Shown here: piece after piece, positions 8,546 through 33,193 of the stretch | Numbering within the stretch: the first letter of the stretch is position 1 | Layout: every line of letters begins with the position of its first letter | Origin: a virus | Lineage: Duplodnaviria > Caudoviricetes | Direction: 5' to 3' (one strand) | Virus record (IMG/VR): IMGVR_UViG_3300012664_000274 | Span: 1 to 46,927 of that record | DNA: 46,927 nt | Position numbers and translations under genes: made by a program | The notes under the pieces: generated by a model | Seen by the model: only the letters and a program-made list of their open reading frames with translations | Told to the model about the DNA's origin: nothing | The model's database searches: none

Positions 8546-9217
8546 TTACATTAGATAAATGGATTTTTCAAATGACTTATTATCATTAATGACATCAACA
8601 ACCGATTGTATTTCTTCTTCTGAAAAATTATATCCGCCATCATATTTTAATGTTATAGTTTGCAATGAAAAATATAATTCTGGGTTATTGTTATAAAGTT
8701 GTTCTAAACCGTCTACTGTTATTTTTTGCCCGACATACGTTAAAACTTCATTTTGTAAGTTTAAATTGTTTTTATTGACAAAAGATGATAAGATCGCAAA
8801 ACTAGCGTTATAACGTTTTAATGTACAAAATAATTCATGCTTTGGTTTACCAATAAATGGATTATACAAACCTTTTAACTTATACTTATTAATGATCTCA
8901 TAGTATAATGCAATTTCACCATAGTGATCTATTTCCCCAGTACATAAGTAGTATTCTGTTGCATTTACTTCTTGAAATAGACTATCTAAGATGTCACTAA
9001 AATCTTTATCATTACCATAGATCACTTTAGTACCAATAGATTGCGTAAGTTTTTTTAAGTGATTACTTACAGAAGTATCTCTATCTTTATTACCTTTATA
9101 AAAATAACTTAGCGAAATTGGTATTACATTAGATCTTCCGTGGTCTTCAACTAATTTAAAATAACACGCAAGACTATCTTTACCTCCAGATAGCATGACA
9201 ATAAATTTATTGCTCAT
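8546..9217 (-). CDS. PP-loop (adenine nucleotide alpha-hydrolase) ATPase, diphthine-ammonia ligase-like
   Basis: N-terminal IVMLSGGKDS PP-loop; later TGEI, NPF and LQTI segments resemble the Dph6/ATP_bind_4 family; no QueC Cys cluster. Confidence 0.6.
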   Translation of the reverse strand: MSNKFIVMLSGGKDSLACYFKLVEDHGRSNVIPISLSYFYKGNKDRDTSVSNHLKKLTQSIGTKVIYGNDKDFSDILDSLFQEVNATEYYLCTGEIDHYGEIALYYEIINKYKLKGLYNPFIGKPKHELFCTLKRYNASFAILSSFVNKNNLNLQNEVLTYVGQKITVDGLEQLYNNNPELYFSLQTITLKYDGGYNFSEEEIQSVVDVINDNKSFEKSIYLM

Positions 9218-10040
9218 TTACATTTCTCACAAAGTTGTATCTTGTTGACATTCTTTTAAATGTATTTTGCACAGTGTCAATTTTTAGAATAGATTCAGTA
9301 ATATGATTTTTTGTTAAACCAGTTTTAAATGAATAGACTTGTATTTTATTAACGCTTTCATAATATTCTATTGTAAATGCACCTACAAATCTTGTAAAAA
9401 TCAAATATAATAACGGTTTTACTCTATCATCAAGTTCTATGTCACATGCAATTTCAATTTTACCACGATCATCAGTACATAAAAACCCGTGAACCTTTTT
9501 ATAACCAAACAACAAAGCTGGATTATGCAATCTAACAAAATACTTTTTATCTTTTGAAAATATTACATTTGAAATAGTTTTTAAAAAATATTCATTATGA
9601 CTATCAATCAATTCATCTAATGTACCAACTGAAAGTACTGTTTCATACGGGCCATCTAATTCCAATAGTTCGAATTGCTGATTAAAGTTTATTTGCTTAA
9701 ACATTTCAAATTCATTATTATTAACGAATTGATGACAAGGAGAAACAGTAGCATTATCGTAACGCACCATTCTTCCCTTAATAAATGTCATAATAGTTTC
9801 TTGGTCAAACCTAGAACATTTATTTGGTATAGCCCAAAAAATATGACCATCATTCCAAAAATCTTTTAAAGAAACTGAATTATAATCTAGTTCATATTTG
9901 TTGTCTGAAATAATAACATCTGCTAATTCTGGTGTATATACAAACTCAGTATTGGGTACATTCTTAAGAATTGTTCTAGTTAAATTCAAATTATCAGTAA
10001 AAACTTTTAATCTTTGATCAATAAGCATGACATCAGACAT
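9207..10040 (-). CDS. Hypothetical protein, possibly a degenerate ATP-grasp fold
   Basis: Probable start MSDVML at 10040. C-terminal FVGAFTIEYYE...IQVYSFKTG resembles the ATP-grasp G.f.iE....i.v.E.N.R strand pair but lacks the ExN catalytic residues. Confidence 0.35.
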   Translation of the reverse strand: MSDVMLIDQRLKVFTDNLNLTRTILKNVPNTEFVYTPELADVIISDNKYELDYNSVSLKDFWNDGHIFWAIPNKCSRFDQETIMTFIKGRMVRYDNATVSPCHQFVNNNEFEMFKQINFNQQFELLELDGPYETVLSVGTLDELIDSHNEYFLKTISNVIFSKDKKYFVRLHNPALLFGYKKVHGFLCTDDRGKIEIACDIELDDRVKPLLYLIFTRFVGAFTIEYYESVNKIQVYSFKTGLTKNHITESILKIDTVQNTFKRMSTRYNFVRNVNEQ

Positions 10041-10914
10041 ATGGATATTCCATTCCACTTTTAAACATATGAATCGATTCAAAATATAAATCAATTCTTT
10101 GTTTCCAGTCAGTTTGCCAAGGAAATATAAATCCACTTCTTTTACTAGAAATAACTTTAGAAACTACTTCTTTATTATGTTGAATGTTTTTATACTTTAA
10201 ATTTCTATAAACTGGTGAATATATCATTGAAAAAACATCACCCCATTTACTTAATACAGAAAATGGTTTTTCTTTTAATGATGCTATCAATCCAAACTCA
10301 CTATTATAAGATGTCCATAAAGATTTAGAACTATTTAATAATTGAAAACCACTTACAGTTTGATCAATAACTCGACCTGGCCATTTTTCTTTAATATCAT
10401 TAGCAGACTTATCAGTTATTACTGGATGTAATTTAATCATAGCTAAAGGATTATCAACTAATGCTTCATCTAACTTTTCCCAATCTATAGAATGAAATAA
10501 GTTTGATCCTGGTAAAAATACAATATGATCGTATTTAGAACTCGGCGTTTCTAAAATATATTTGTCATTCAATTTTTCTAAAAGAGTGTCGCTGATATCA
10601 CCTTCTTTATCTTGTGATAAAATTGCATCAACATTTCTACAATTTATTTCAGCATTTCTAGTACTAATTAATATTCCACCCATAGAATCGTGATATGAAA
10701 TTGCATTTACGACATCATTAACGACTTTAGTATTATCGTTACGTGGCGGAACTCCACCAATTAATGGACCAACATTATACTTGCATGTCAATTCATACTC
10801 AGCACACTTTTTTATAATATACGTTTCTATTTCTAAAAATGTAGACTTATCATACAGCGGAATATTACTTCCTATTCTAGATTCATTTGTCCATTCACTG
10901 TCAATTGTGTTCAT
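10033..10914 (-). CDS. GT-B fold glycosyltransferase-like protein (KpsS/KpsC capsule-synthesis-like)
   Basis: VFLPGS...MIKLHP...LLNSSKSLWTSYNSEFGLIASLKEKP matches the KxHP and ll..s..v.T.nS..GleA...gKP pattern of CMP/CDP-donor GT-B enzymes. Confidence 0.55.
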   Translation of the reverse strand: MNTIDSEWTNESRIGSNIPLYDKSTFLEIETYIIKKCAEYELTCKYNVGPLIGGVPPRNDNTKVVNDVVNAISYHDSMGGILISTRNAEINCRNVDAILSQDKEGDISDTLLEKLNDKYILETPSSKYDHIVFLPGSNLFHSIDWEKLDEALVDNPLAMIKLHPVITDKSANDIKEKWPGRVIDQTVSGFQLLNSSKSLWTSYNSEFGLIASLKEKPFSVLSKWGDVFSMIYSPVYRNLKYKNIQHNKEVVSKVISSKRSGFIFPWQTDWKQRIDLYFESIHMFKSGMEYPYV

Positions 10915-11510
10915 TATATTTTACCTACGTATGTTATTAACCATGTACTATAATTTATAGTAGTTGTGTGCGATGTAGTTTTTGTACCGATATTGTTCGT
11001 TGTATCTTGATAGTTTGTAATAAACGAAGTTGTTGCACTTGTAGTTTGTGCAGTTGACCAACTTGTATTTTGAGAAGTAGTTTGACTATATATCGTAGAG
11101 TAACTAGTTGTGCCTGACCAAGCAGTTGTATAATAAGTCAAGTATGAAGTAGTTCCATAAACGTAACCACCTTTAGTTTGACCAATTATCGTAGAGTTAG
11201 ATGTAGTATGACTTGTAGACCGACTATAAGAAGTAGTATTACTTGTAGTTTGATTATACGACGTAGTAAAACTTGTTGGTGCTGATGTAGTAAGATTAGT
11301 ACTCCAACTTGTTAAATTACTAGTTGTATTGCTTTTTGCTGTTGTAGCAGATGTAGAGAAATTAGTGCTATATGATGTAGTAAACGTAGTTGTACCACTA
11401 TGCAACCACTTTTTCCATAGAACTTGGTTATTTAACTTTAACTCAAATAATTCATTACCATTAAGATAAATGTTTTGTATTTGCGATAAATCTACCTGTT
11501 GTTGTGCCAT
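10914..11510 (-). CDS. Thr/Ser-rich low-complexity repeat protein, probably virion-associated
   Basis: Short N-terminal IYLNG.EL..LKLNNQVLW domain, then ~160 aa of T-S-x-x repeats around a central GQTKGGYVYG turn. Confidence 0.7.
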   Translation of the reverse strand: MAQQQVDLSQIQNIYLNGNELFELKLNNQVLWKKWLHSGTTTFTTSYSTNFSTSATTAKSNTTSNLTSWSTNLTTSAPTSFTTSYNQTTSNTTSYSRSTSHTTSNSTIIGQTKGGYVYGTTSYLTYYTTAWSGTTSYSTIYSQTTSQNTSWSTAQTTSATTSFITNYQDTTNNIGTKTTSHTTTINYSTWLITYVGKI

Positions 11511-15280: not shown

Positions 15281-15288
15281 TATTTATA
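15281..15288 (-). promoter_or_regulatory. T4-type late promoter TATAAATA
   Basis: Exact motif overlapping the DUF3050 stop codon, upstream of the structural genes that resume at 15247. Confidence 0.7.
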
Positions 15289-16036
15289 TAACTTGCTGTT
15301 CAATGGCATCAAATAGTTGAATTCTGGCATCAATAGCTTTAATTGCTGCTTGCTCAGCCTCATGGATTAAAAATGGATCGTTTTTACAGAAATATTCTAC
15401 CAGTTTCTCTGACATTGGTCCATGATCTTCTCCATCAACCTCAATGTGACGTTCTAGATAGTAATAAAACTTTGGAGCATTTAATCGTGACATCTGGGTT
15501 TGCTTAAGTACTCGCTTAAACATTGCAGGGATTGCAGTCTCACGTCCATAGCAAAATGAAGCGGCCGCGCAATGAGGACCTTTGTAGATCGCGTCAAATG
15601 TGGTATTCACAAATGGCTCAACAACTTCAGGGGCAAACCAATGAACACCATGCTTTTCAACCTTGGCGAGATATTCTCTAATCAAAGATGTATCTGCACC
15701 AACCTCCATCATGGCTTGGAGGTACAAGTCAAAGTGGCTAATTGGACTTCCATCTTGGCCAATATCAGATTCTTCACACAACACAATTTCATTGATGGTT
15801 CTAGCAATTTCAGATCTAGTGCCAGAGGTAGGCAACCACAATCTACCAGATGGAACCACCTCATGTTGTATGGATTTTAATAAACTCATGAAGTCCCATA
15901 CTGCAAATACATGGTACTTCATAAATGTTCTTAGATCATCCATGTTCTGAATAACAGTTGTATTCAATAATGGATGTGCATTTAATGCATCTTGGCGTTC
16001 TTTAATTTTACTTAGGTTTAATTTCATCGATGCCAA
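15284..16036 (-). CDS. DUF3050 family heme-oxygenase-like (putative diiron) oxidase
   Basis: FM..HVFAVWDFMSLLK, INEIVL.EESD, SHFDLYL.AM..GADT, GRE..IP.MF, YYLERHIEVDG..HGP. Confidence 0.85.
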   Translation of the reverse strand: MASMKLNLSKIKERQDALNAHPLLNTTVIQNMDDLRTFMKYHVFAVWDFMSLLKSIQHEVVPSGRLWLPTSGTRSEIARTINEIVLCEESDIGQDGSPISHFDLYLQAMMEVGADTSLIREYLAKVEKHGVHWFAPEVVEPFVNTTFDAIYKGPHCAAASFCYGRETAIPAMFKRVLKQTQMSRLNAPKFYYYLERHIEVDGEDHGPMSEKLVEYFCKNDPFLIHEAEQAAIKAIDARIQLFDAIEQQVI

Positions 16037-17321
16037 TTTCCAATAATTCTACAGGACTTCCAAATAATAATGCAAATGATTGCTGTTGGATTGCAGAGAA
16101 CCAAATCTTTTCAACTCTACAATTATGCATGAATACTTCATCTGGGAATTTAATTGGACAACTAGACTTACATAGTCTACGCACAGGACATGTATAGCAA
16201 TGCTCATTCTTTCTGTCCAAGTCTAATCCAATAATCTTAATCCCTTTAATATCATTGATATGACCGCCATTAAACTTCTCAGACGTATGCGGACACAATC
16301 TAATATTACCACGAATGTCGATCGATAGAATATCAGCAGAGTCTGCACCACAACTTGATACCATTGTAATAGGGATTTGATGACGTGTCAAACCCGCATA
16401 TTTTAGAACACCAGTATCATTATCAATAATATTGGTATTTAGAATTCTATCACCAGTGGTTTTGATCTGTTCAATTCCAGCAACAATAAAGTCATTGACG
16501 ATCTTCTTAAACTTAGGTAAATCATCACCTTTAATTACATGTTCTGCAGAGTTTTTACTATCGCTGTCATCATATACACGTGCAGGAATATAACTCATAC
16601 GCACATGTTTCAATTCGAATGTATCTGCAACATCTTTAAAGTAATCATTGATTGCAAATAAGTCATAGTTTGTGGCAGATACAACGCAGTTGAAACTATA
16701 TTGCACCTTAGGATGCATATCATCTAATTGTTTTAATGTATTAACAACTGATGCTTTGTCAAAGATATTCTCACCTCTGAGTGTTTCATGACCTGGTCCA
16801 TCGTGAGATATACCCATCATCACAGAGGCTTCTAATGTTTTAAAGAAGTCGACGTGCTTTTGACGTAATGGAGAACCATTAGTCGAAATATAGAAATGTC
16901 TATTAGGTGCATCTAAAAATTTCATGATTGGGACGATATCATTCCAATATAAGAATGGTTCACCACCCCAAAGTTCGATGCGCTCTAAATCAGATAAGTC
17001 CAAATTATTTTTAACAGATTCGATAAATGATTCTAGCCAGAAGTTTTCTGGTCTTTCATCTGGATTACCAATATCTTTTTGCATGCAATACGTGCATGAA
17101 TAATTGCATGCATGACCTAATAGAATACGCATAGCGACAGGTCTATTGGTTTTATGTGTTACACCAAATAAGTTTTGCGAATTAGCATTCTCGAAATATT
17201 CCTGACCTTCCTTTGGAGGAAGTGACATTAATTCACCGCTCTCATTATAGATGCTATTGTCTTCAGTTTTATAATAAAAAACTGTGTTACTATTTGTGAC
17301 TTTAAATTTACTGTATGGCAT
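16008..17321 (-). CDS. Radical SAM/SPASM-domain protein
   Basis: CNYSCTYC, WGGEP, STNGS, ISHDG; C-terminal CGA...IDIRGNIRLC and CYTC.....CKSSC...C; probable start MPYSKF at 17321. Confidence 0.9.
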   Translation of the reverse strand: MPYSKFKVTNSNTVFYYKTEDNSIYNESGELMSLPPKEGQEYFENANSQNLFGVTHKTNRPVAMRILLGHACNYSCTYCMQKDIGNPDERPENFWLESFIESVKNNLDLSDLERIELWGGEPFLYWNDIVPIMKFLDAPNRHFYISTNGSPLRQKHVDFFKTLEASVMMGISHDGPGHETLRGENIFDKASVVNTLKQLDDMHPKVQYSFNCVVSATNYDLFAINDYFKDVADTFELKHVRMSYIPARVYDDSDSKNSAEHVIKGDDLPKFKKIVNDFIVAGIEQIKTTGDRILNTNIIDNDTGVLKYAGLTRHQIPITMVSSCGADSADILSIDIRGNIRLCPHTSEKFNGGHINDIKGIKIIGLDLDRKNEHCYTCPVRRLCKSSCPIKFPDEVFMHNCRVEKIWFSAIQQQSFALLFGSPVELLEIGIDEIKPK

Positions 17322-18375
17322 TATTAGACTCAATCAAGGGGATTACATTATCACTGACATTAAACAAACCATATTTAGTTTGTGTCCAACCGTCTTCTAC
17401 TAATTTATAAAAGAACCTGGACTTAGGTGGGATCATCACTGCTGGGATAAAATTAAAATTTGGATTCACAATATAGTTTTGTGTTTCCTCGTAATAATCT
17501 TTGAAATGTGCATGTTCTGCTTGATCTTTCCATAGACCATATTTAACTTGCTTACGTCTAACTAAACTGTATAAAAACGCTTGCATATTAATTTCATTGC
17601 AAAACGTAAAGAATGGTTCAGCTTCAATATTTGCAGAATCGTCACATGAATAATAGAAACGATCATAGTGCAATTGAATAGATTCACGATAAATCTGTTT
17701 AATTCCAGTGTCTGAGTTTTCAACCCATGTATTCTGATATTCTGTCCAATCGTGGTTTAATATCTTTCTATCAGGACTTCTGAAGTCATGGATAACACAA
17801 TTATTTAAACCAAGTTGATTGACCCATTTAATAATCTCTTCGAATACTTCTGGGTGGCCACAGTCAACATACTTTACTTTCTTAACACCATATCGTTCGT
17901 GCAGTTCTTTCACTGCAGATAATACTTTTTCTGCACCTGTATGCTTGATAAAATCAGTGCTAATACCAATATCTGCTACACCAGCAAGATTCAATTCTTT
18001 TAATCGTAGCAATCTAAAGATAGCATTATCAGTTACACAGATATGGAAACGATGTGCATTTTCTTTATACCATGCATATTGTTTAGGGTGATTATATTTT
18101 AAGAAGTAGAGGTCTTCATTAGTTCTAAGTTCCATGAAATAATCAAAGAACTTATTCCAGATTGGTTCCATCTTTTCAATATTATCATCGAAGATGGATA
18201 ACGGTTTTACTTGTTCAAGTTTGTCTTTAATATAACAAACCTTGCACCCAGCATCACAGTAATATCTTCGACCCAAACTAAAATAAATGTCATATTGCAA
18301 TGAATGCAATGCATCTTCTTTAAGCCAATATTCGCCTAAATTTTCATATGTGTCAAAGTTATTACCGTCGTTCAT
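17308..18375 (-). CDS. Divergent radical SAM-like protein
   Basis: CDAGCKVCY fits CxxxCxxC near the N-terminus, but no GGE motif or SPASM Cys set is recognisable. Confidence 0.6.
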   Translation of the reverse strand: MNDGNNFDTYENLGEYWLKEDALHSLQYDIYFSLGRRYYCDAGCKVCYIKDKLEQVKPLSIFDDNIEKMEPIWNKFFDYFMELRTNEDLYFLKYNHPKQYAWYKENAHRFHICVTDNAIFRLLRLKELNLAGVADIGISTDFIKHTGAEKVLSAVKELHERYGVKKVKYVDCGHPEVFEEIIKWVNQLGLNNCVIHDFRSPDRKILNHDWTEYQNTWVENSDTGIKQIYRESIQLHYDRFYYSCDDSANIEAEPFFTFCNEINMQAFLYSLVRRKQVKYGLWKDQAEHAHFKDYYEETQNYIVNPNFNFIPAVMIPPKSRFFYKLVEDGWTQTKYGLFNVSDNVIPLIESNNAIQ

Positions 18376-19493
18376 TGTTCAATCTCAAAATCAGGATTAA
18401 TTCCAACCCATTCTAAAATGCTTTTCTTTTCGTGCAGTTTATCTAAGTGCATCATAATATAATCCATGGCAGTATAGAATTCTGCGCAGTGACCTTCTGG
18501 TTCTCTATCAAATAGATGGTACATGTATTTTAGACCACAACTACTTTCTTTATGGCAACTTAGGCAATCATCTCTGATTCTAGATTTATTGCCAAGGTTT
18601 TTCCATATCTGACGAGTTTTCCAATTACCAATTCTGCCAGCATCAATCTTATATTCTAAGAATTCAAATTCTGGATACATGTATCCATCTGGACCTAAGA
18701 TTAATTTATGATGTTCACCAAAATATGCTTTATCAATCTTGGTATAACAACCATCGACAAACACATTCAAACGCTTGATATAAAGAATCTGGATGAGTTG
18801 AATAAAAGCATCCATAAATTGTGGAATATTAATTCGATCAATAATAACATCGAATTTATCTTTACCACGCTTATGTCTAAGCGGAATAATGTTAATTGTT
18901 CTGCAGTTTGTCTTATAACATGTATTGACAATCGTCTTAATATTGTCAAAAGAGAATGCAGTCTTATTATCTATTGGCATTACAAACTGCCATTGCCAAG
19001 TGTCACAGTACTTGTTTAAGACTTCTGCCATTTCATAAACATCAAAACCTTCACGGTTTTCTTCTTGATACATGAAGTCATAGCTTACAGTTGCACGCAA
19101 AATCTTGTTGTATTTTGCGAAGAACCATTCATTCTCTTTGACCAAAGAACCATTTGTGGTTAACGTAATTTTCCAATCATGTTCAAGCGCCATTGGATAT
19201 AACCATTGCATGATTTGTTCCATACGCTTGATGAATAATAATGGTTCACCGCCATGGAATGAAACTAACTTCAAATCATTTGGTTGTGATACAACCCATT
19301 CGAAGAACTCTTTCATTTCATCGACATTGGTCCTATTCACATTTTGACCACCAATAGATTCGATATAACCTCTATCACAATACACACAATCAAAGTTGCA
19401 TGTATTGCCAAGATATAAAGTTATCAAGTAAACCTTATTCAGCGGTTTACTTGGAATCACATTAATTATAGAGTCTTTCACTGAATGTTCCAT
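18372..19493 (-). CDS. Radical SAM protein with partial SPASM/twitch domain
   Basis: CNFDCVYC, FHGGEPLL, TTNGSL, VSYD; C-terminal GPDGYMYP, CLSC.....C and C. Confidence 0.9.
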   Translation of the reverse strand: MEHSVKDSIINVIPSKPLNKVYLITLYLGNTCNFDCVYCDRGYIESIGGQNVNRTNVDEMKEFFEWVVSQPNDLKLVSFHGGEPLLFIKRMEQIMQWLYPMALEHDWKITLTTNGSLVKENEWFFAKYNKILRATVSYDFMYQEENREGFDVYEMAEVLNKYCDTWQWQFVMPIDNKTAFSFDNIKTIVNTCYKTNCRTINIIPLRHKRGKDKFDVIIDRINIPQFMDAFIQLIQILYIKRLNVFVDGCYTKIDKAYFGEHHKLILGPDGYMYPEFEFLEYKIDAGRIGNWKTRQIWKNLGNKSRIRDDCLSCHKESSCGLKYMYHLFDREPEGHCAEFYTAMDYIMMHLDKLHEKKSILEWVGINPDFEIEQ

Positions 19494-21180
19494 GGAATGT
19501 TTTAGAATTTTGTAATACAGTAATATGTAGCAATGTTAAGTAGAAGCATCTTTCTAACATAGAAGTTGCTTTACGTTTTTCAGGATTATGCAACATACCA
19601 CTCTTTTGCATCACATAATAATAAAATTCGTCAATTTCCATAGAATCATCAGTCATTAGATTCTTAACTTGGTCTACGTAAGTATCTGCTTTAAATTCTG
19701 GATCAATTTCTTTATCAATTATCTTTTTCCAAAGCGCCAATAGATGCTTATAATCTGCATTATCAATTCCAGTATGAACTAATTCATTCTTAGGATGATA
19801 ATTAAAATAATTGAAGAACATTAGATAACTTAGACCACGAACAAATGCAACTTCTTCGCCCATATCATTACATGCTTTTGCAATTGATTCATACTTATTT
19901 CTAGTTTGTTGCTTAATAATATCTTCTTGCAAGTCGACATATAGTTTAACAATCTTTTGGCACATATCATCAGGACTAAACATTTTAGCACCGATATCCA
20001 AATTACCAGCTGGACATTGATAACATGCATTCTTATAATCACAAGTTTGGCACTGTTCCTCAGTTTCAAACATTTTATTATATTCTTGCTTGAATAGATT
20101 ATAACGATCAGTATAAATTACGTCTTGATAAACATTGCCCAAAATGGCTGAATTACCTGCACCAGCTTTTTGGTTTGTGAAGAAATAACAACCGGAAAAA
20201 TCTCCAGATGCATCGATCGCAATCATCTCTGAACCAATCATGCAATTTTCTTCACCTTTTTGACCAACACCTTCAGAGAAGTGGATTTCTAAATTCTCAT
20301 ATTCAGATAATACGAATAGAATATCTTTGTGCAATTGATCCCATTCATTATCTGCCCATTTAATGAAGCCTTTAGATGAGTCTAAGATTAATGGATGTAC
20401 GACAAGTTTTCTAATTCCACGATCATGCAAGTTCTTAACAAACTGCTTGAAATGTGGTGCATTTTCACGAGCAAGTGTGCAACGAATTAATACTCGTTTT
20501 GCAAGTTTAATATCTAATGGCATATCAGCAATTTGTGCCATCAGTTTATCAATTTTATCTTGGCCAATTTCTCTGTGATCGACCTCTGCAATATCAGTGT
20601 CTAACGAGATAAGCATACTAGTAAAATCGTATTTGAAATACTTTTCAACTAGATCTTTTGTGACCAATAATCCATTAGTAACGATACCAATGTTGGTGTT
20701 AATATCACCTTTAGAATTGCGTGACAATTCATCCTGATTCTTTTCTAAGAAGTCAAGAATAATATCTTTATGGATTAGAGGTTCACCGCCGAAGAATTGG
20801 AATACTTTTCTTTGACGATTATTAGAGTTCACTAGGAATCTATATGCAGATAATAGCGACTCATTGGTGAATCGACCAAAATCTTTATTGTGTTGCTCGT
20901 AGCAATATGTACATGACAAATTACATGCATTTGTCAAGATTAAATTCATCTGTTTTAATTCCTGGAACAAATACGACGAATCAGATAGTTTATCTACCTT
21001 TTCAGTATCTGACGGAATAACAGAGATTAATTTATTTTCTTTTACCAACCCTTTAGGCGTGACAATGGTTTGGGATTCAAACTTTAATGTGCCATCACCC
21101 ATTTGAATAACAGAAGCTTTATGTTGTTCTTGCTTTTTAGTTTGTTTTTCTTCGTTTAGCCATATTATATGTTTTTTCAT
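19462..21180 (-). CDS. Radical SAM/SPASM-domain protein (peptide-maturase-like) with C-terminal extension
   Basis: CNLSCTYC, FFGGEPL, VTNGLL, ISLD; CMIG.....IDASGDFSGC and CQTC.....CYQCP...C. Confidence 0.92.
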   Translation of the reverse strand: MKKHIIWLNEEKQTKKQEQHKASVIQMGDGTLKFESQTIVTPKGLVKENKLISVIPSDTEKVDKLSDSSYLFQELKQMNLILTNACNLSCTYCYEQHNKDFGRFTNESLLSAYRFLVNSNNRQRKVFQFFGGEPLIHKDIILDFLEKNQDELSRNSKGDINTNIGIVTNGLLVTKDLVEKYFKYDFTSMLISLDTDIAEVDHREIGQDKIDKLMAQIADMPLDIKLAKRVLIRCTLARENAPHFKQFVKNLHDRGIRKLVVHPLILDSSKGFIKWADNEWDQLHKDILFVLSEYENLEIHFSEGVGQKGEENCMIGSEMIAIDASGDFSGCYFFTNQKAGAGNSAILGNVYQDVIYTDRYNLFKQEYNKMFETEEQCQTCDYKNACYQCPAGNLDIGAKMFSPDDMCQKIVKLYVDLQEDIIKQQTRNKYESIAKACNDMGEEVAFVRGLSYLMFFNYFNYHPKNELVHTGIDNADYKHLLALWKKIIDKEIDPEFKADTYVDQVKNLMTDDSMEIDEFYYYVMQKSGMLHNPEKRKATSMLERCFYLTLLHITVLQNSKTFHGTFSERLYN

Positions 21181-21200: not shown

Positions 21201-21413
21201 TTAGAATGTTCCTCTAGAACATTGGCACTGACATTGACATTCACAAACAGTTGTATAATCATCATAGAAAATATGATTATGTGATTGCAAACTTTCAAGC
21301 ACATCTAACATCTGTCTAAATGTGTCTGCAGTAATTAAATCACCTGCACTTTTATTAGGAGGAGTTGAACCACCACCTGTGCCTGATACGTCTGATACGT
21401 TTTCTACGCCCAT
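21201..21413 (-). CDS. 70-aa Cys-rich peptide, putative radical SAM substrate
   Basis: AGGAG Shine-Dalgarno; ends HNHIFYDDYTTVCECQCQCQCSRGTF with five alternating Cys; immediately upstream of four rSAM genes. Confidence 0.75.
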   Translation of the reverse strand: MGVENVSDVSGTGGGSTPPNKSAGDLITADTFRQMLDVLESLQSHNHIFYDDYTTVCECQCQCQCSRGTF

Positions 21414-21421
21414 AATTGCTC

Positions 21422-22330
21422 CTATCGAATAATGTCCACTACGTATTCTTTAAAGAATCTGTTTTTACTTGCATGGAATGTCATATCCATTACAGTTCCA
21501 GTATTCCATCGTAATGAAATATATCCTTTGTCTTTATTTATTGTACTTACACGGATCGTATTTCCATCGAGAACGTAATCAAAATTAGTATCAATCTTGA
21601 TTTTCGCATCTTTGAAAAAATCTCCAAGATGTTCTTTAACGAACCATGAACCAAATGGCTGAATAGTAAATTCATCACCACGGACAAATACATTATTCTC
21701 ACCAATCACTCTAGCATTTTTACTAAACTTAGGTTTAAACACAACATCATTCATATTCTTTAAATGATTTGATATCGTATAAACTTCATTCTCATCATAG
21801 ACTCCATCAATATTATTAATGGTTTGAATAGCATGAGGATTCATAACCATATAATATAATGGCACATCACGAGTTTTAAAACAGAAAAACCATGGAATTA
21901 ATGTAGGGTTTACAACTGTTTTGCCACTAATTAAATCTATTACATCGTTACCATTTCTCATATAGAACGATGCATTTGCAATAACCTCTTGTTGTGAAAG
22001 AGCTTTATTCTCCATGATAGACGCATATAATACAATTTGATCAACTGTATCATCAACTATGCTTGCAATCTTTGAAAAGTTTAATCTAATTTCAGTAGAT
22101 AACAAATCAGGACTATATGGCTTTTTCAAAATCAAACATGACTCATCTTGTGATTTTGTAATAGCAAATCTGTTATCGACTCTTTCGAAAAACGAAATTC
22201 TACTATTATAACCTTCAGCATTATTATTACCATTCAATCCAGGTTTGATACTAACATTCGACATATTGATTGCATCATCCCATGGATCTGGATGCCCAAT
22301 ATTAGTTTGGATTAAAAATACTCTTTTCAT
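21422..22330 (-). CDS. Hypothetical protein within the rSAM cluster
   Basis: 302-aa ORF, ATGA-coupled to the ferritin-like gene; no motif recognised. Confidence 0.65.
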   Translation of the reverse strand: MKRVFLIQTNIGHPDPWDDAINMSNVSIKPGLNGNNNAEGYNSRISFFERVDNRFAITKSQDESCLILKKPYSPDLLSTEIRLNFSKIASIVDDTVDQIVLYASIMENKALSQQEVIANASFYMRNGNDVIDLISGKTVVNPTLIPWFFCFKTRDVPLYYMVMNPHAIQTINNIDGVYDENEVYTISNHLKNMNDVVFKPKFSKNARVIGENNVFVRGDEFTIQPFGSWFVKEHLGDFFKDAKIKIDTNFDYVLDGNTIRVSTINKDKGYISLRWNTGTVMDMTFHASKNRFFKEYVVDIIR

Positions 22331-23118
22331 AATGATTTCCTATATTGCTTCAATTCATTTGGCGTAGTCATTTTATGACCAGTTAAATTAGATGCAATTC
22401 TCAAAATACTTGCTTGCAATCTTTTCTGATCATGCTCATCAAACTTGAGTACATCTTGCAAGAAATGATCAAATAATTCAGGATTTGGCAAGCGTGAATG
22501 CACCGACTTCTTATTTATGTCCAAGGTCGATGCAGCCTTAATGGAAATGAAATATCGATTAGTCATGAATAACTGAAAGACTGCCAAAATACCTTTTGCA
22601 TTGTCTTTAGTATAATACTTTCGCATGAATGCTTTAAATGCACCTGCATGATTTGCTTCATCTAATACTAAAGAACGATATATTTCTTTAATTAATGGCT
22701 CTTCATGCCAATCTGCCATTTTTCTATACCATCTAATGACAGATAATTCAGTGCACATATGCAACGCCATCGTTTCAGCAACTGTCATTGGAGAATCACT
22801 AAACTTAATAGCAACTTCTTCAAATTCGTGCAATGTTGCTTCATGATCAGGAATAAATCGTTTAGAATATTCTTTTAAAATAAATGCATGCTTATGTTCA
22901 TCATGAACCCATTTAGCAATGAATGAATGTAAGTCTAAATCGGTTTCAGGAATTTCTTTCAGCATTGATAATGCCGCAGGCAACGATGCATACTCAATAA
23001 CAGTATTCATCTTAATAACTTCAGCATGAAACGAAGAAAGCTTATCGTCCTGATAAGCTTCCCAATTAATGCTTGATGCATCGAATGATTTGTTCAAATA
23101 TATTTTTTGTGATAACAT
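22327..23118 (-). CDS. Ferritin-like diiron protein (acyl-ACP-desaturase/oxygenase-like)
   Basis: Two E...DExxH units: IEY...WVHDEHKH and TEL...DEANH. Probable ATG at 23118 (the ORF track starts at GTG 23130). Confidence 0.8.
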   Translation of the reverse strand: MLSQKIYLNKSFDASSINWEAYQDDKLSSFHAEVIKMNTVIEYASLPAALSMLKEIPETDLDLHSFIAKWVHDEHKHAFILKEYSKRFIPDHEATLHEFEEVAIKFSDSPMTVAETMALHMCTELSVIRWYRKMADWHEEPLIKEIYRSLVLDEANHAGAFKAFMRKYYTKDNAKGILAVFQLFMTNRYFISIKAASTLDINKKSVHSRLPNPELFDHFLQDVLKFDEHDQKRLQASILRIASNLTGHKMTTPNELKQYRKSL

Positions 23119-23135
23119 AATATAGTCCACGTTTA

Positions 23136-23522
23136 TTATCCAGTTCTATCATCTATTGCGTGATTATGATAACCATATGCACGCATTGCTCCAGCCATTT
23201 CGTTGTGTTTACCAGCAGTGATAGTAGTTGTAGTGCTAACACCACCTAAAGCTCCAGGATTATTACTATAACCACCAGTGCTACTATCACGTATATATGT
23301 ATTTCTATCCCCATTATTACCATACGTTGCAGTTTGGTATAAATCGTCATACGTATGATAGTGACCAATAGCATTGTTGATCAAATTAATCAAGGTTTGA
23401 ATATCACCTTGATACACTATAGCACCAGAAGTAATTTTAGAACGAAGCGTAGAAATATAACCACCTAGATTTCCTAGATCATTGTAATACCAACTTTTGT
23501 GATATCTAGTTACTTGTGCCAT
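23136..23522 (-). CDS. 128-aa protein with two HxHxxDD repeats, homologous to the 70-aa peptide
   Basis: GHYHTYDD and YHNHAIDD are each preceded by a helical segment that aligns without gaps to the 70-aa peptide. Confidence 0.7.
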   Translation of the reverse strand: MAQVTRYHKSWYYNDLGNLGGYISTLRSKITSGAIVYQGDIQTLINLINNAIGHYHTYDDLYQTATYGNNGDRNTYIRDSSTGGYSNNPGALGGVSTTTTITAGKHNEMAGAMRAYGYHNHAIDDRTG

Positions 23523-23523
23523 A

Positions 23524-23955
23524 TTAGTCTAACCTTAAAACTTCATTGAAGAGATATGCGTTTGTGCCATCATGAATTCTAATATAAACATTCTCTGCGT
23601 CTATATTCTTCATGCTTAATAACGGATTAATGATAGCATTGTTAATTATGTCGATAATTTCTGCAGTATTTTGCTTATCGACATAATATTTAATATAGTT
23701 TCTTGATTCTTCGCTAACCATTGAATGTGTCAAGAAGTCAGTGTATATGTTATTGTAACTTGGATCAATGAAAATATCATTTTCTCCAAGCGATTCAGGG
23801 AACATTTCGTTTACTGCTTCATCACTTCCGATGACAGCAATATATTTTTGTACTACATCATGATCAGCGAACACCAAGACATCTTGCAATTCAGGATGTT
23901 GAAATGCATAATCTCTTAGTGCTGCAGCATGTTGTGGATTTACTTGATAAGGCAT
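23524..23955 (-). CDS. Hypothetical protein
   Basis: 143-aa acidic ORF overlapping the upstream fibre stop; no motif recognised. Confidence 0.6.
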   Translation of the reverse strand: MPYQVNPQHAAALRDYAFQHPELQDVLVFADHDVVQKYIAVIGSDEAVNEMFPESLGENDIFIDPSYNNIYTDFLTHSMVSEESRNYIKYYVDKQNTAEIIDIINNAIINPLLSMKNIDAENVYIRIHDGTNAYLFNEVLRLD

Positions 23956-25046
23956 TCTACAATCACTTCACCGAATGTTGCATTAGATTCTAGCGCAAAA
24001 CCAATTGGATTTACTTCACCATAGACTGCGCGCCCATCAAAACCTGCCATGATGCGTTGTCCTTTAATGATTGGACCCATGACACGAACAGGCACACGAC
24101 CAACTAAAGCAATTGCTTGTCCTTCGCTTTCGCTATTCATTAGGTACGCTGGATCTGTTGATACAACACCAATTGCTGGTTGACCAATTGAATATGACGC
24201 AGTACATTCTGAACTTGAACCTGGACCAGCAATAACAACTACTGTTCCTGGCAAATACTCTTGGTCAGTTGTATATTTTTCGGCTAAGTCAGCATATCGA
24301 GCAGCTGTTGCTGTACCATTGAAAACGTTGGCTGTTAAGTTACCAGAGCTATCGCGTGCAGCAACTGTATTACCTGTTGCAGTAACAGTTTGTGTTTGAC
24401 CATTCAACAAGAATGAATCCGCAGCTTTACCAGTTGTGCTTAATGGTGTATAACCAAGTGATGAACTAATATCACCTGCAGCAATTGTACTACCTGCTGT
24501 TGCGCGACCTTTAGAATCAAATGTGATTTTTGTATATGTGCCTGCAGTAATACCGCTATTAGCAAGTGTCAATGCGCTTGTGACATTACCAGAACCATCA
24601 AATGATGTAGTCCAAGTTGCATCACCTGTGATACTAATTGAACGTGCAGTTGCTAATCTAGAAGCTGTACCACTTGCATTACCTGTTAAGTCACCTGTTA
24701 CATTACCTGTGACGTTACCTGTTAAGTTACCAGTTACATTACCAACTAATGGACCGTTGAATTGAGTGGCAGTCATTTGTCCAGTAACTTGTAAGTTACC
24801 AACTGCATCTAGTGTCAATTCAAATGTATCAGAAGTGTCAACACTAATTTTGAATGTAGTATTTGGTGTCGCTTCGATCATATCGCTAATTGGTTTTAGC
24901 GTAGATCTAATTTCATTCATGCCATCGACTACAGTTTGTGCTGTAGTTTCAAGTAAAGACGTATCACCAATGAAAGCACCGATTTCGTTGGTCTTAGTTC
25001 TCCATGTTTCAAACGTGTCTTGGATATTTACGTTAATAGCTGACAT
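23940..25046 (-). CDS. Baseplate-attached fibre/spike protein with a C-terminal peptidase-G2/intramolecular-chaperone-like domain
   Basis: N-terminal DTFETWRTKTNEI anchor, GNVT repeats, AGTYTKIT.D.KGR.T fibre motif, C-terminal YADLAEKY...GTVV...IGVVST.PAYLMN...ALVGRVPV.V.G.I.KG. Confidence 0.68.
   Translation of the reverse strand: MSAINVNIQDTFETWRTKTNEIGAFIGDTSLLETTAQTVVDGMNEIRSTLKPISDMIEATPNTTFKISVDTSDTFELTLDAVGNLQVTGQMTATQFNGPLVGNVTGNLTGNVTGNVTGDLTGNASGTASRLATARSISITGDATWTTSFDGSGNVTSALTLANSGITAGTYTKITFDSKGRATAGSTIAAGDISSSLGYTPLSTTGKAADSFLLNGQTQTVTATGNTVAARDSSGNLTANVFNGTATAARYADLAEKYTTDQEYLPGTVVVIAGPGSSSECTASYSIGQPAIGVVSTDPAYLMNSESEGQAIALVGRVPVRVMGPIIKGQRIMAGFDGRAVYGEVNPIGFALESNATFGEVIVECLIK
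24670..24750 (-). repeat. 12-bp tandem repeat encoding (G-N/D-V/L-T)n
   Basis: GNVTGNLTGNVTGNVTGDLTGNASG; recurring ttacctgt-like units on the + strand; coordinates approximate. Confidence 0.8.
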
Positions 25047-33185: not shown

Positions 33186-33193
33186 TATTTATA
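33186..33193 (-). promoter_or_regulatory. T4-type late promoter TATAAATA
   Basis: Exact motif in the gp7-gp8 intergenic gap. Confidence 0.75.

Follow-up and report, generated by a model that had tools for sequence, protein, structure and literature searches.

What does a tailed phage do with a gene for a 70-residue protein that ends in alternating cysteines and stands in front of four radical SAM genes? The window (the whole 46,927-nt stretch of DNA analysed here) covers tail and baseplate genes of a T4-like phage; the gene is among them, and baseplate and fibre genes flank the cassette to which it belongs. It is read on the minus strand (21201..21413, −), which the initial annotation had left unstated, with its ATG at 21413 and its stop ending at 21201, the plus-strand reading being full of stops, and its product consists of a variable N-terminus, a helix+HxH module, the cysteine ladder and an RG-x-hydrophobic end. 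As the initial annotation had stated, translation gives 70 residues with alternating Cys at 57, 59, 61, 63 and 65 (C-E-C-Q-C-Q-C-Q-C, residues 57-65, the predicted modification site; 21219..21245, −), encoded by mixed codons (TGT GAA TGT CAA TGT CAG TGC CAA TGT); an AGGAG Shine-Dalgarno (21419..21423, −) precedes the ATG by 5 nt and overlaps the stop codon of the 302-aa gene before it; the first radical SAM gene comes directly after the peptide gene, across a gap of 20 nt. From the comparisons set out below, we think it probable that the 70-aa protein is a small structural subunit of the tail-fibre tip, whose ladder would be cross-linked by the radical SAM enzymes of its own cassette.

By chance, 0.02 occurrences of the alternating codon pattern with five Cys would be expected in the window; one is present, and 2 of 100 shuffles also reached this count. 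Conservation is a stronger test of the ladder than these shuffling statistics. A protein search returned 206 homologs, and residues were counted on the best-scoring 120, a set that leans towards similarity because it was chosen by score. Among these best 120 of 206, all five Cys are kept in 118 (C57 and C63 each in 119), and H45, H47, F49-Y53, T55, V56, C59, Q60, C61, C65, R67 and G68 are invariant, FYDDY and RG included; the proposal had been said to fall if the Cys run were not conserved in orthologous clusters, and the run is intact. Among the 41 distinct peptide genes from fetched loci (a set partly chosen by a motif requiring four Cys), each Cys position is encoded by TGT in some and by TGC in others. 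A microsatellite origin of the ladder was rejected on these two grounds, conservation of the Cys run among homologs and use of both codons at each Cys, which bears out the earlier remark that this is no pure microsatellite. Its description of a Gly/Ser-rich N-terminus holds for the window peptide and does not generalise, the first ~20 residues varying freely among homologs. No model in Pfam, PHROG or NCBIfam covers the peptide, and an Atlas search returned unnamed viral clusters alone (0.87, a lead only), the nearest named cluster being the TIGR04114/TIGR04115 CXXX-repeat family (0.79, below the lead threshold). Metallothioneins are Cys-rich throughout, at about a third of residues; here 5 of 70 residues are Cys and there is no Pfam match.

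Along the minus strand, the genes run from gp8 through a VrlC-like gene (2128 aa) and an 83-aa gene to a 368-aa tail-fibre-like gene (fib368; 23940..25046, −), which has no Cys tail and is the candidate fibre for the cap proposed below. A 143-aa gene of the T4-like lineage (23524..23955, −) separates it from HxH128 (23136..23522, −), which encodes 128 aa with two helix+HxH modules and is the predicted partner of the peptide. A ferritin-like, probably diiron, protein (22327..23130, −) and the beta-rich 302-aa accessory protein o302 (21422..22330, −) come next, then the peptide, rSAM1 (19462..21180, −), rSAM2 (18372..19493, −), rSAM3 (17308..18375, −), rSAM4 (16008..17333, −), a DUF3050 heme-oxygenase-like protein (15284..16036, −) and an LtfC-like tail gene. 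From gp8 through DUF3050 the genes are nearly contiguous, with intergenic gaps of at most 20 nt. T4-late-promoter-like octamers, TATAAATA, stand before gp8 (33186..33193, −, the nearest upstream, with the gp8-to-cassette genes downstream) and at the end of DUF3050; their number is not above chance (6 vs 5.5), and only strand and position are suggestive. From the contiguity and these positions, we infer that the cassette may be transcribed late together with the structural genes. The model of o302 (pLDDT 87) matched only generic Ig-like sandwiches over its C-terminal residues 193-302 (best Z 6.3), with a Foldseek TM of at most 0.21 and nothing usable from the Atlas search. The window also holds a second small cassette among its tail genes (8546-11510, −), composed of a 223-aa PP-loop-like ATPase with weak diphthamide synthase/QueC matches, unknowns of 309 and 293 aa, and a 198-aa Thr/Ser-repeat protein, and this is possibly another modifying enzyme with a repeat substrate.

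The cassette recurs well beyond this phage. The 20 viral loci found with the peptide carry the same cassette genes as far as their contigs extend, and a motif scan yielded 63 loci, 14 of them chance matches and 49 with a peptide homolog (cut at 8 kb, near-duplicate phages included; 41 distinct genes). The initial annotation had suggested a pattern search for such peptides beside phage radical SAM genes, and the linkage was found in every case: all 49 peptide loci carry HxH128 and at least one radical SAM gene, so that a ribosomally made, Cys-rich candidate substrate is clustered with a radical SAM gene in each, as in ranthipeptide and other radical-SAM RiPP systems. Individually, rSAM1 is present in 48 of the 49, o302 in 45, rSAM2 in 43, rSAM4 in 41 and rSAM3 in 40; the 143-aa gene (20 of 49), DUF3050 (20, some loci ending early) and the ferritin-like gene (4) are less frequent, the last two being optional. 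The carriers span unrelated large phages, both T4-like and phiKZ-like. In the phiKZ-related phage RP12 (NC_041911.1), the full cassette stands behind two virion-annotated fibre-like genes and its DUF3050 homolog is annotated as MgoB-like; the peptide gene, unannotated, lies between gp074 and gp075 (L027:13941-14138) and encodes 65 aa with helix+HxH and four alternating Cys, and an unannotated stretch of RP31 matches it by tblastn. Among the 120 GTDB motif loci listed, one carries the cassette (L145) and the rest are mostly chance matches, so that within this list, and as far as it shows, the cassette does not appear to be a general bacterial system. L145 itself is a scaffold in a Bdellovibrio-labelled MAG with the full cassette, and is either a phage contig or a prophage.

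The N-terminal half of the peptide offers the first indication of its role. Its helix+HxH module (about residues 24-53; 21255..21344, −) is homologous to each repeat of HxH128 (peptide residues 5-52 match the repeat with an hhalign probability of 93%, E 2.8e-7), and the HxH is kept in both HxH128 repeats in 17 of 17 sequences and as invariant H45/H47 of the peptide in 120 of 120 (best 120 of 206). A disposable leader, which the leader-core architecture originally proposed would imply, is therefore not upheld, the supposed leader being a module that is common to HxH128 and is also found fused to tail-fibre C-termini. A profile search gave 77 representatives of distant relatives, among which natural single chains with three modules occur: P0155 has three HxH sites plus a ladder and resembles HxH128 only weakly (10%), and P0172 combines a part similar to HxH128 (hhalign 93%) with a peptide-like module, giving three modules and no ladder. 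A strict rule of one peptide module to two of HxH128 (2+1) has exceptions: single chains that pair a ladder with two HxH sites (12 of the 77), L068, which carries two HxH128 genes, and P0172 itself, which lacks a ladder; a metagenome scan aimed at two-module-plus-ladder loci returned none of them. The HxH128 homolog of L057 has a Gly-rich domain (PF21722) inserted between its two modules, and the insertion of a whole domain at this point suggests that the modules lie side by side; in L046 and L070, beta-rich or Hint cargo domains follow the modules.

Structure prediction gave a fairly confident HxH128 monomer (pLDDT 74, pTM 0.61). With this model, a fold search of the viral library found only the RP12 homolog (TM 0.72) and comparison with solved structures found nothing above Z 4.5, and sequence searches of solved structures with the peptide and HxH128 alignments returned nothing significant. 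A predicted complex of the peptide homotrimer with Zn scored 0.05 against a mark of 0.42, which speaks neither for nor against such an assembly. The gene that precedes HxH128 is not always a fibre, several loci having something else there. In L027, L039, L046, L057, L070 and L083, from unrelated phages, it is fibre-like and ends in a common W-x-Q-x-aromatic-P-x-x-aromatic motif, to which the cap might dock; the window fibre lacks this motif. Two further peptide-module proteins, P0163 and P0197, have C-terminal beta-rich cargo, in one case after the ladder and a Pro linker and in the other without a ladder.

A more direct tie to tail fibres comes from proteins in which the ladder is part of the fibre. 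Searching homologs for longer proteins gave no fusion, but profile and motif searches did. One, a 438-aa protein in L232, matches tail-fibre PHROGs and has in common with fib368 a 67-aa repeat (52% identity), and its C-terminal end, a helix, HxH and an alternating run of three Cys, matches the peptide family (hhalign 82%); its gene is followed by a radical SAM gene and then by holin and amidase genes, and L293 encodes a 618-aa relative of this module-plus-ladder fibre. Two Cys-Asn ladder scans made independently of the peptide returned at least 120 loci each, from which 238 new loci were examined (158 longer than 2.5 kb, 125 distinct motif ORFs). Among ORFs of 60 aa or longer that carry the motif close to their C-terminal end, with 2 kb of room or more, 39 of 43 had a radical SAM gene in the locus, compared with 6 of 23 other motif matches; both fractions are inflated by near-identical phages, 59 ORFs with too little room were excluded, and the enzyme profiles were built from the window-type cassette. 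The six comprise three Hint-tailed proteins, one protein with a 56-aa extension, one 28-aa fragment and one radical SAM protein's own motif. A PHROG scan of 31 ladder proteins (30 of the 46 listed, plus that of L232) assigned 15 to tail fibres and one to an unknown family, and left 15 without a match.

Five T4-like loci (L363, L370, L384, L408 and L413) allow the two arrangements to be compared in place. In each, VrlC-like and 83-aa genes like those that precede fib368 in the window are followed by a ladder-tailed fibre, a 270-aa gene and one radical SAM gene, and in three of the five an LtfC-like gene comes after. By this comparison, one genomic slot holds either a ladder-bearing fibre or a plain fibre plus a separate ladder subunit. 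The HxH that precedes the ladder in the peptide is absent from most fused ladders; together with the 15 of 31 proteins that have no PHROG match, this means that the two ladder types may be only loosely related. The fused form is also present in a cultured phage, Achromobacter phage JWF, in which gp28 carries ladder and Hint domain and gp30 is the radical SAM protein. RSP15 has the enzyme and the accessory gene, yet its fibre ends in only two alternating Cys.

Several features of these loci deserve record in their own right. A C-terminal Hint domain follows the ladder in the tailed fibres of L472:3688-5139 (JWF gp28), L293, L288 and L277, where it would leave the ladder at the mature end, and in L232:2307-2530 a Hint-like stretch is broken by a stop and a frame change. 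Between ladder-tailed fibres and radical SAM genes lies a ~270-aa family with no Pfam match (L236, L242, L363 and others, 21 loci; also RSP15 gp047), which does not match o302 in profile comparison (probability 0.2%). L042:7869-8492 encodes a 207-aa homolog of the peptide with a mini-intein inside its Cys ladder (TIGR01445 above cut-off), the insert beginning at a Cys and ending at an Asn that a Cys follows. Conserved and essential sites are where inteins tend to insert. Also in this locus are a PAS-GGDEF-EAL gene and a gene for a 758-aa protein that contains two radical SAM domains.

Which of the four enzymes would act on the ladder? All four keep CX3CX2C, and they differ in auxiliary Cys, of which rSAM1 and rSAM4 have seven, the full SPASM complement seen in ranthipeptide maturases, rSAM2 has four, conserved and C-terminal, and rSAM3 none. 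The Pfam SPASM match of rSAM1 falls just under the cut-off, and rSAM3 is divergent, without an NCBIfam or Pfam match, so that its assignment as a radical SAM protein rests on motif and context. In a FastTree phylogeny (55 rows, rSAM3 left out; long branches and local supports only), the rSAM4 proteins form a clade (support 99) whose sister group (95) comprises 19 of the 26 fibre-linked radical SAM proteins, whereas rSAM1 and rSAM2 form separate clades. This position, and the fact that L068 retains rSAM4 alone of the four within 8 kb, point to rSAM4 as the core ladder enzyme, making it a more likely partner of the ladder than the adjacent rSAM1 and the best candidate maturase. Of 13 gut "phage" matches of rSAM1, the four inspected (L028-L031) look like bacterial SCIFF loci and served as an outgroup only. 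Further large radical SAM genes also occur near the cassette in some phages (L058:617-2509 and L068:4884-6992), one with a B12-binding domain.

As to chemistry, the spacers between ladder Cys can be set beside known acceptor residues. Distant homologs have 3 to 6 Cys, and the 221 spacers counted in them are Asn (113), Gln (54), Asp (16), Ala (14), Glu (9) and others (15). The first five account for 206 of the 221 and correspond to the acceptor set reported for NxxcB (PMC9389541), which makes thioether cross-linking of the ladder, from Cys to Asx/Glx, plausible; each ladder Cys has an Asx/Glx-type residue at i+3 or i−3, so overlapping rings would be possible. The fibre-tip subunit could instead be modified otherwise, for example by alpha-carbon thioethers, epimerisation or a metal/Fe-S cofactor on the ladder. 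Four different radical SAM proteins plus optional diiron-type enzymes imply several reactions, none of the enzymes reaches the cut-off of a characterised family, some ladders have Ala and Thr between the Cys, and other ladder cassettes encode proteins that by eye resemble 2OG-Fe(II) oxygenases. We nevertheless consider such chemistry unlikely, given that rSAM1 and rSAM4 keep full seven-Cys SPASM sets, that the best NCBIfam match of rSAM1 is the PapB ranthipeptide maturase model and that Asn, Gln, Asp and Glu dominate the spacers.

Comparison with described maturases places the Asx/Glx thioether in context. One close system is CrpC, a SPASM radical SAM enzyme that introduces ranthionine cross-links into the Cys-rich protein CrpA of Methanococcus voltae (PMC13692751): here too the maturase lies beside its Cys-rich protein and the C-X-X-Q/D motif of CrpA matches the ladder spacing, but CrpA is a 29-kDa cellular protein of an archaeon, with a repeat of 17 residues and a single enzyme that has a predicted RRE, and the main text of that paper contains neither "phage" nor "tail". 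In the streptococcal RaS-RiPP system NxxcB/NxxcA, NxxcB joins Cys to the Asn beta-carbon by a thioether and also accepts Ala, Gln and Asp (PMC9389541); the NxxC spacing and the acceptor residues recur in the ladder, whereas NxxcA is a peptide natural product with one enzyme, and the window has four radical SAM proteins, motifs that overlap, and a structural module where a leader would be. The top NCBIfam matches of rSAM1 are PapB (NF047865) and SCIFF maturases (TIGR03974), which have seven-Cys SPASM domains as well, but its scores are far below their cut-offs (113 vs 340 and 76 vs 425 bits, the former being the best for any radical SAM protein of the cassette). PapB uses CX3D spacing, which cannot occur in the ladder, where i+4 is a Cys. 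The TIGR04114/TIGR04115 CXXX-repeat family likewise pairs a Cys-repeat target with a radical SAM/SPASM protein, but its Cys fall on every fourth residue rather than every second, and rSAM1 scores 72 against a cut-off of 350 bits. A Pfam scan of the cassette found no RRE/PqqD match. In the light of these comparisons, the peptide and its enzymes would work like a ranthipeptide-type substrate and maturase set, one that is not placed in any described family.

On the structural side, the T4 gp37 needle provides a precedent, in which each of three chains contributes a His-x-His pair (H929/H931) to an iron site on the fibre axis (PMC6957217). T4 gp37 is a homotrimer, whereas window-type modules are split 2+1 over two genes or joined as three in one chain. 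Analogy may also be drawn, though no further, with T2/S16-type gp38, a monomer that caps the trimeric fibre via its N-terminus and displays a Gly-rich domain (PMC12892980, PMC12032242), as does, by its insert, the HxH128 homolog of L057; gp38 is not known to have an HxH module, a Cys ladder or a maturase. Homology and the natural fusions suggest that one peptide module and two HxH128 modules would form a pseudo-three-fold unit, in which six His would surround one metal ion; three-module chains are observed, and the convergence of three HxH pairs on a single metal is predicted. The unit would cap the trimeric fibre, and the "leader" would stay on as an assembly handle. Co-occurrence and the tree suggest that rSAM4 would act on the ladder, most probably forming thioethers from Cys sulfur to the beta or gamma carbon of an Asn, Asp, Gln or Glu three residues away (NxxC/CxxQ), while rSAM1-3 and the optional diiron-type enzymes might add further tailoring, and the product might be a rigid, protease-resistant tip for host contact. 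The virion location, assembly and chemistry of peptide and partner are inferred. A published mass-spectrometric list of 32 RP31 virion proteins (PMC5468394 Table S3) does not include the HxH128 homolog ORF70, a weak test because fibres ORF68/69, which lie upstream, are missing from the list too and the peptide had no annotation.

Three other accounts would change the role or the assembly rather than the bond. Alternating Cys and HxH can bind metals without enzymes. The tip protein might accordingly be an unmodified metal-binding or disulfide protein, with the radical SAM enzymes acting on another virion protein or on a small molecule, which could involve the heme-oxygenase-like enzyme; DUF3050/MgoB relatives act in small-molecule pathways (PMC3298696, PMC12522199). 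We hold this improbable: none of the 49 peptide loci has the ladder without a radical SAM gene, and 39 of 43 unrelated ladder-ended proteins are likewise accompanied by one, whereas the heme-oxygenase-like gene is optional (20 of 49). Less probable still is that role and chemistry are as we propose but the peptide forms a homotrimer, HxH128 being a separate trimer with two stacked metal sites. T4 gp37, a homotrimer with seven iron sites along it (PMC6957217), the one-module fibres of L232 and L293, which are presumably homotrimers, and the two-module-plus-ladder proteins (12 of 77) would fit such an arrangement, but HxH128 accompanies the peptide in 49 of 49 loci, three-module single chains exist, the HxH128 model is fairly confident as a monomer and the L057 insert suggests modules side by side. 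Least probable of all is a conventional RiPP, in which cleavage of the leader would free a small cyclic core that acts inside the infected cell, either as an antimicrobial or as a counter-defence effector: an ORF this short, with an N-terminus that varies and a Cys-rich C-terminus that is invariant, standing immediately ahead of radical SAM/SPASM genes, would suit it, as would the RP31 virion table without any cassette protein (PMC5468394), but the 48 window ORFs scanned near the cassette include no protease or transporter/exporter (host or distant phage genes could serve), the cassette lies among structural genes, and the "leader" module is common to HxH128 and, with the ladder, fused to tail fibres, so that the free peptide product implied by the initial annotation finds no support either.

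Returning to the cross-linked tip subunit, the bond type is probably a known one (ranthionine), and what is new is a virion-subunit substrate whose "leader" is a structural module. New here are the three-module single chains, the fusion of module plus ladder to a fibre and the same-slot comparison in T4-like phages, together with the assignment of rSAM4, the intein inside a ladder and the cultured examples; among titles and the beginnings of abstracts, with few subscription journals covered, no paper turned up that deals with a phage structural protein modified by radical SAM enzymes or with this peptide family. The free 70-aa substrate gene can be co-expressed in E. coli, which makes this variant unusually testable. 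A bolder reading, which we regard as rather unlikely for the present, is that large phages mount a RiPP-like polycyclic thioether "warhead" on a symmetry-breaking, metal-clamped 2+1 fibre-tip cap as a receptor-binding ligand that is not genetically encoded; it would be made by four radical SAM enzymes plus optional diiron enzymes, and might mimic a peptide or metal chelate imported by a host outer-membrane transporter.

The receptor-binding parts of phages are commonly regarded as plain gene products. If the warhead reading is true, host range would be set by post-translational chemistry and not by protein sequence alone. The tip-subunit reading, if it holds, would mean that natural-product enzymes mature the fibre tips of widespread phages (T4-like, phiKZ-like, other jumbo phages and prophages). 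There would then be an untapped radical SAM clade for a dense Cys ladder, as well as an extra layer of host recognition that is missed both by sequence-based host prediction and by standard virion proteomics, in which a 7-kDa cross-linked chain would not be identified.
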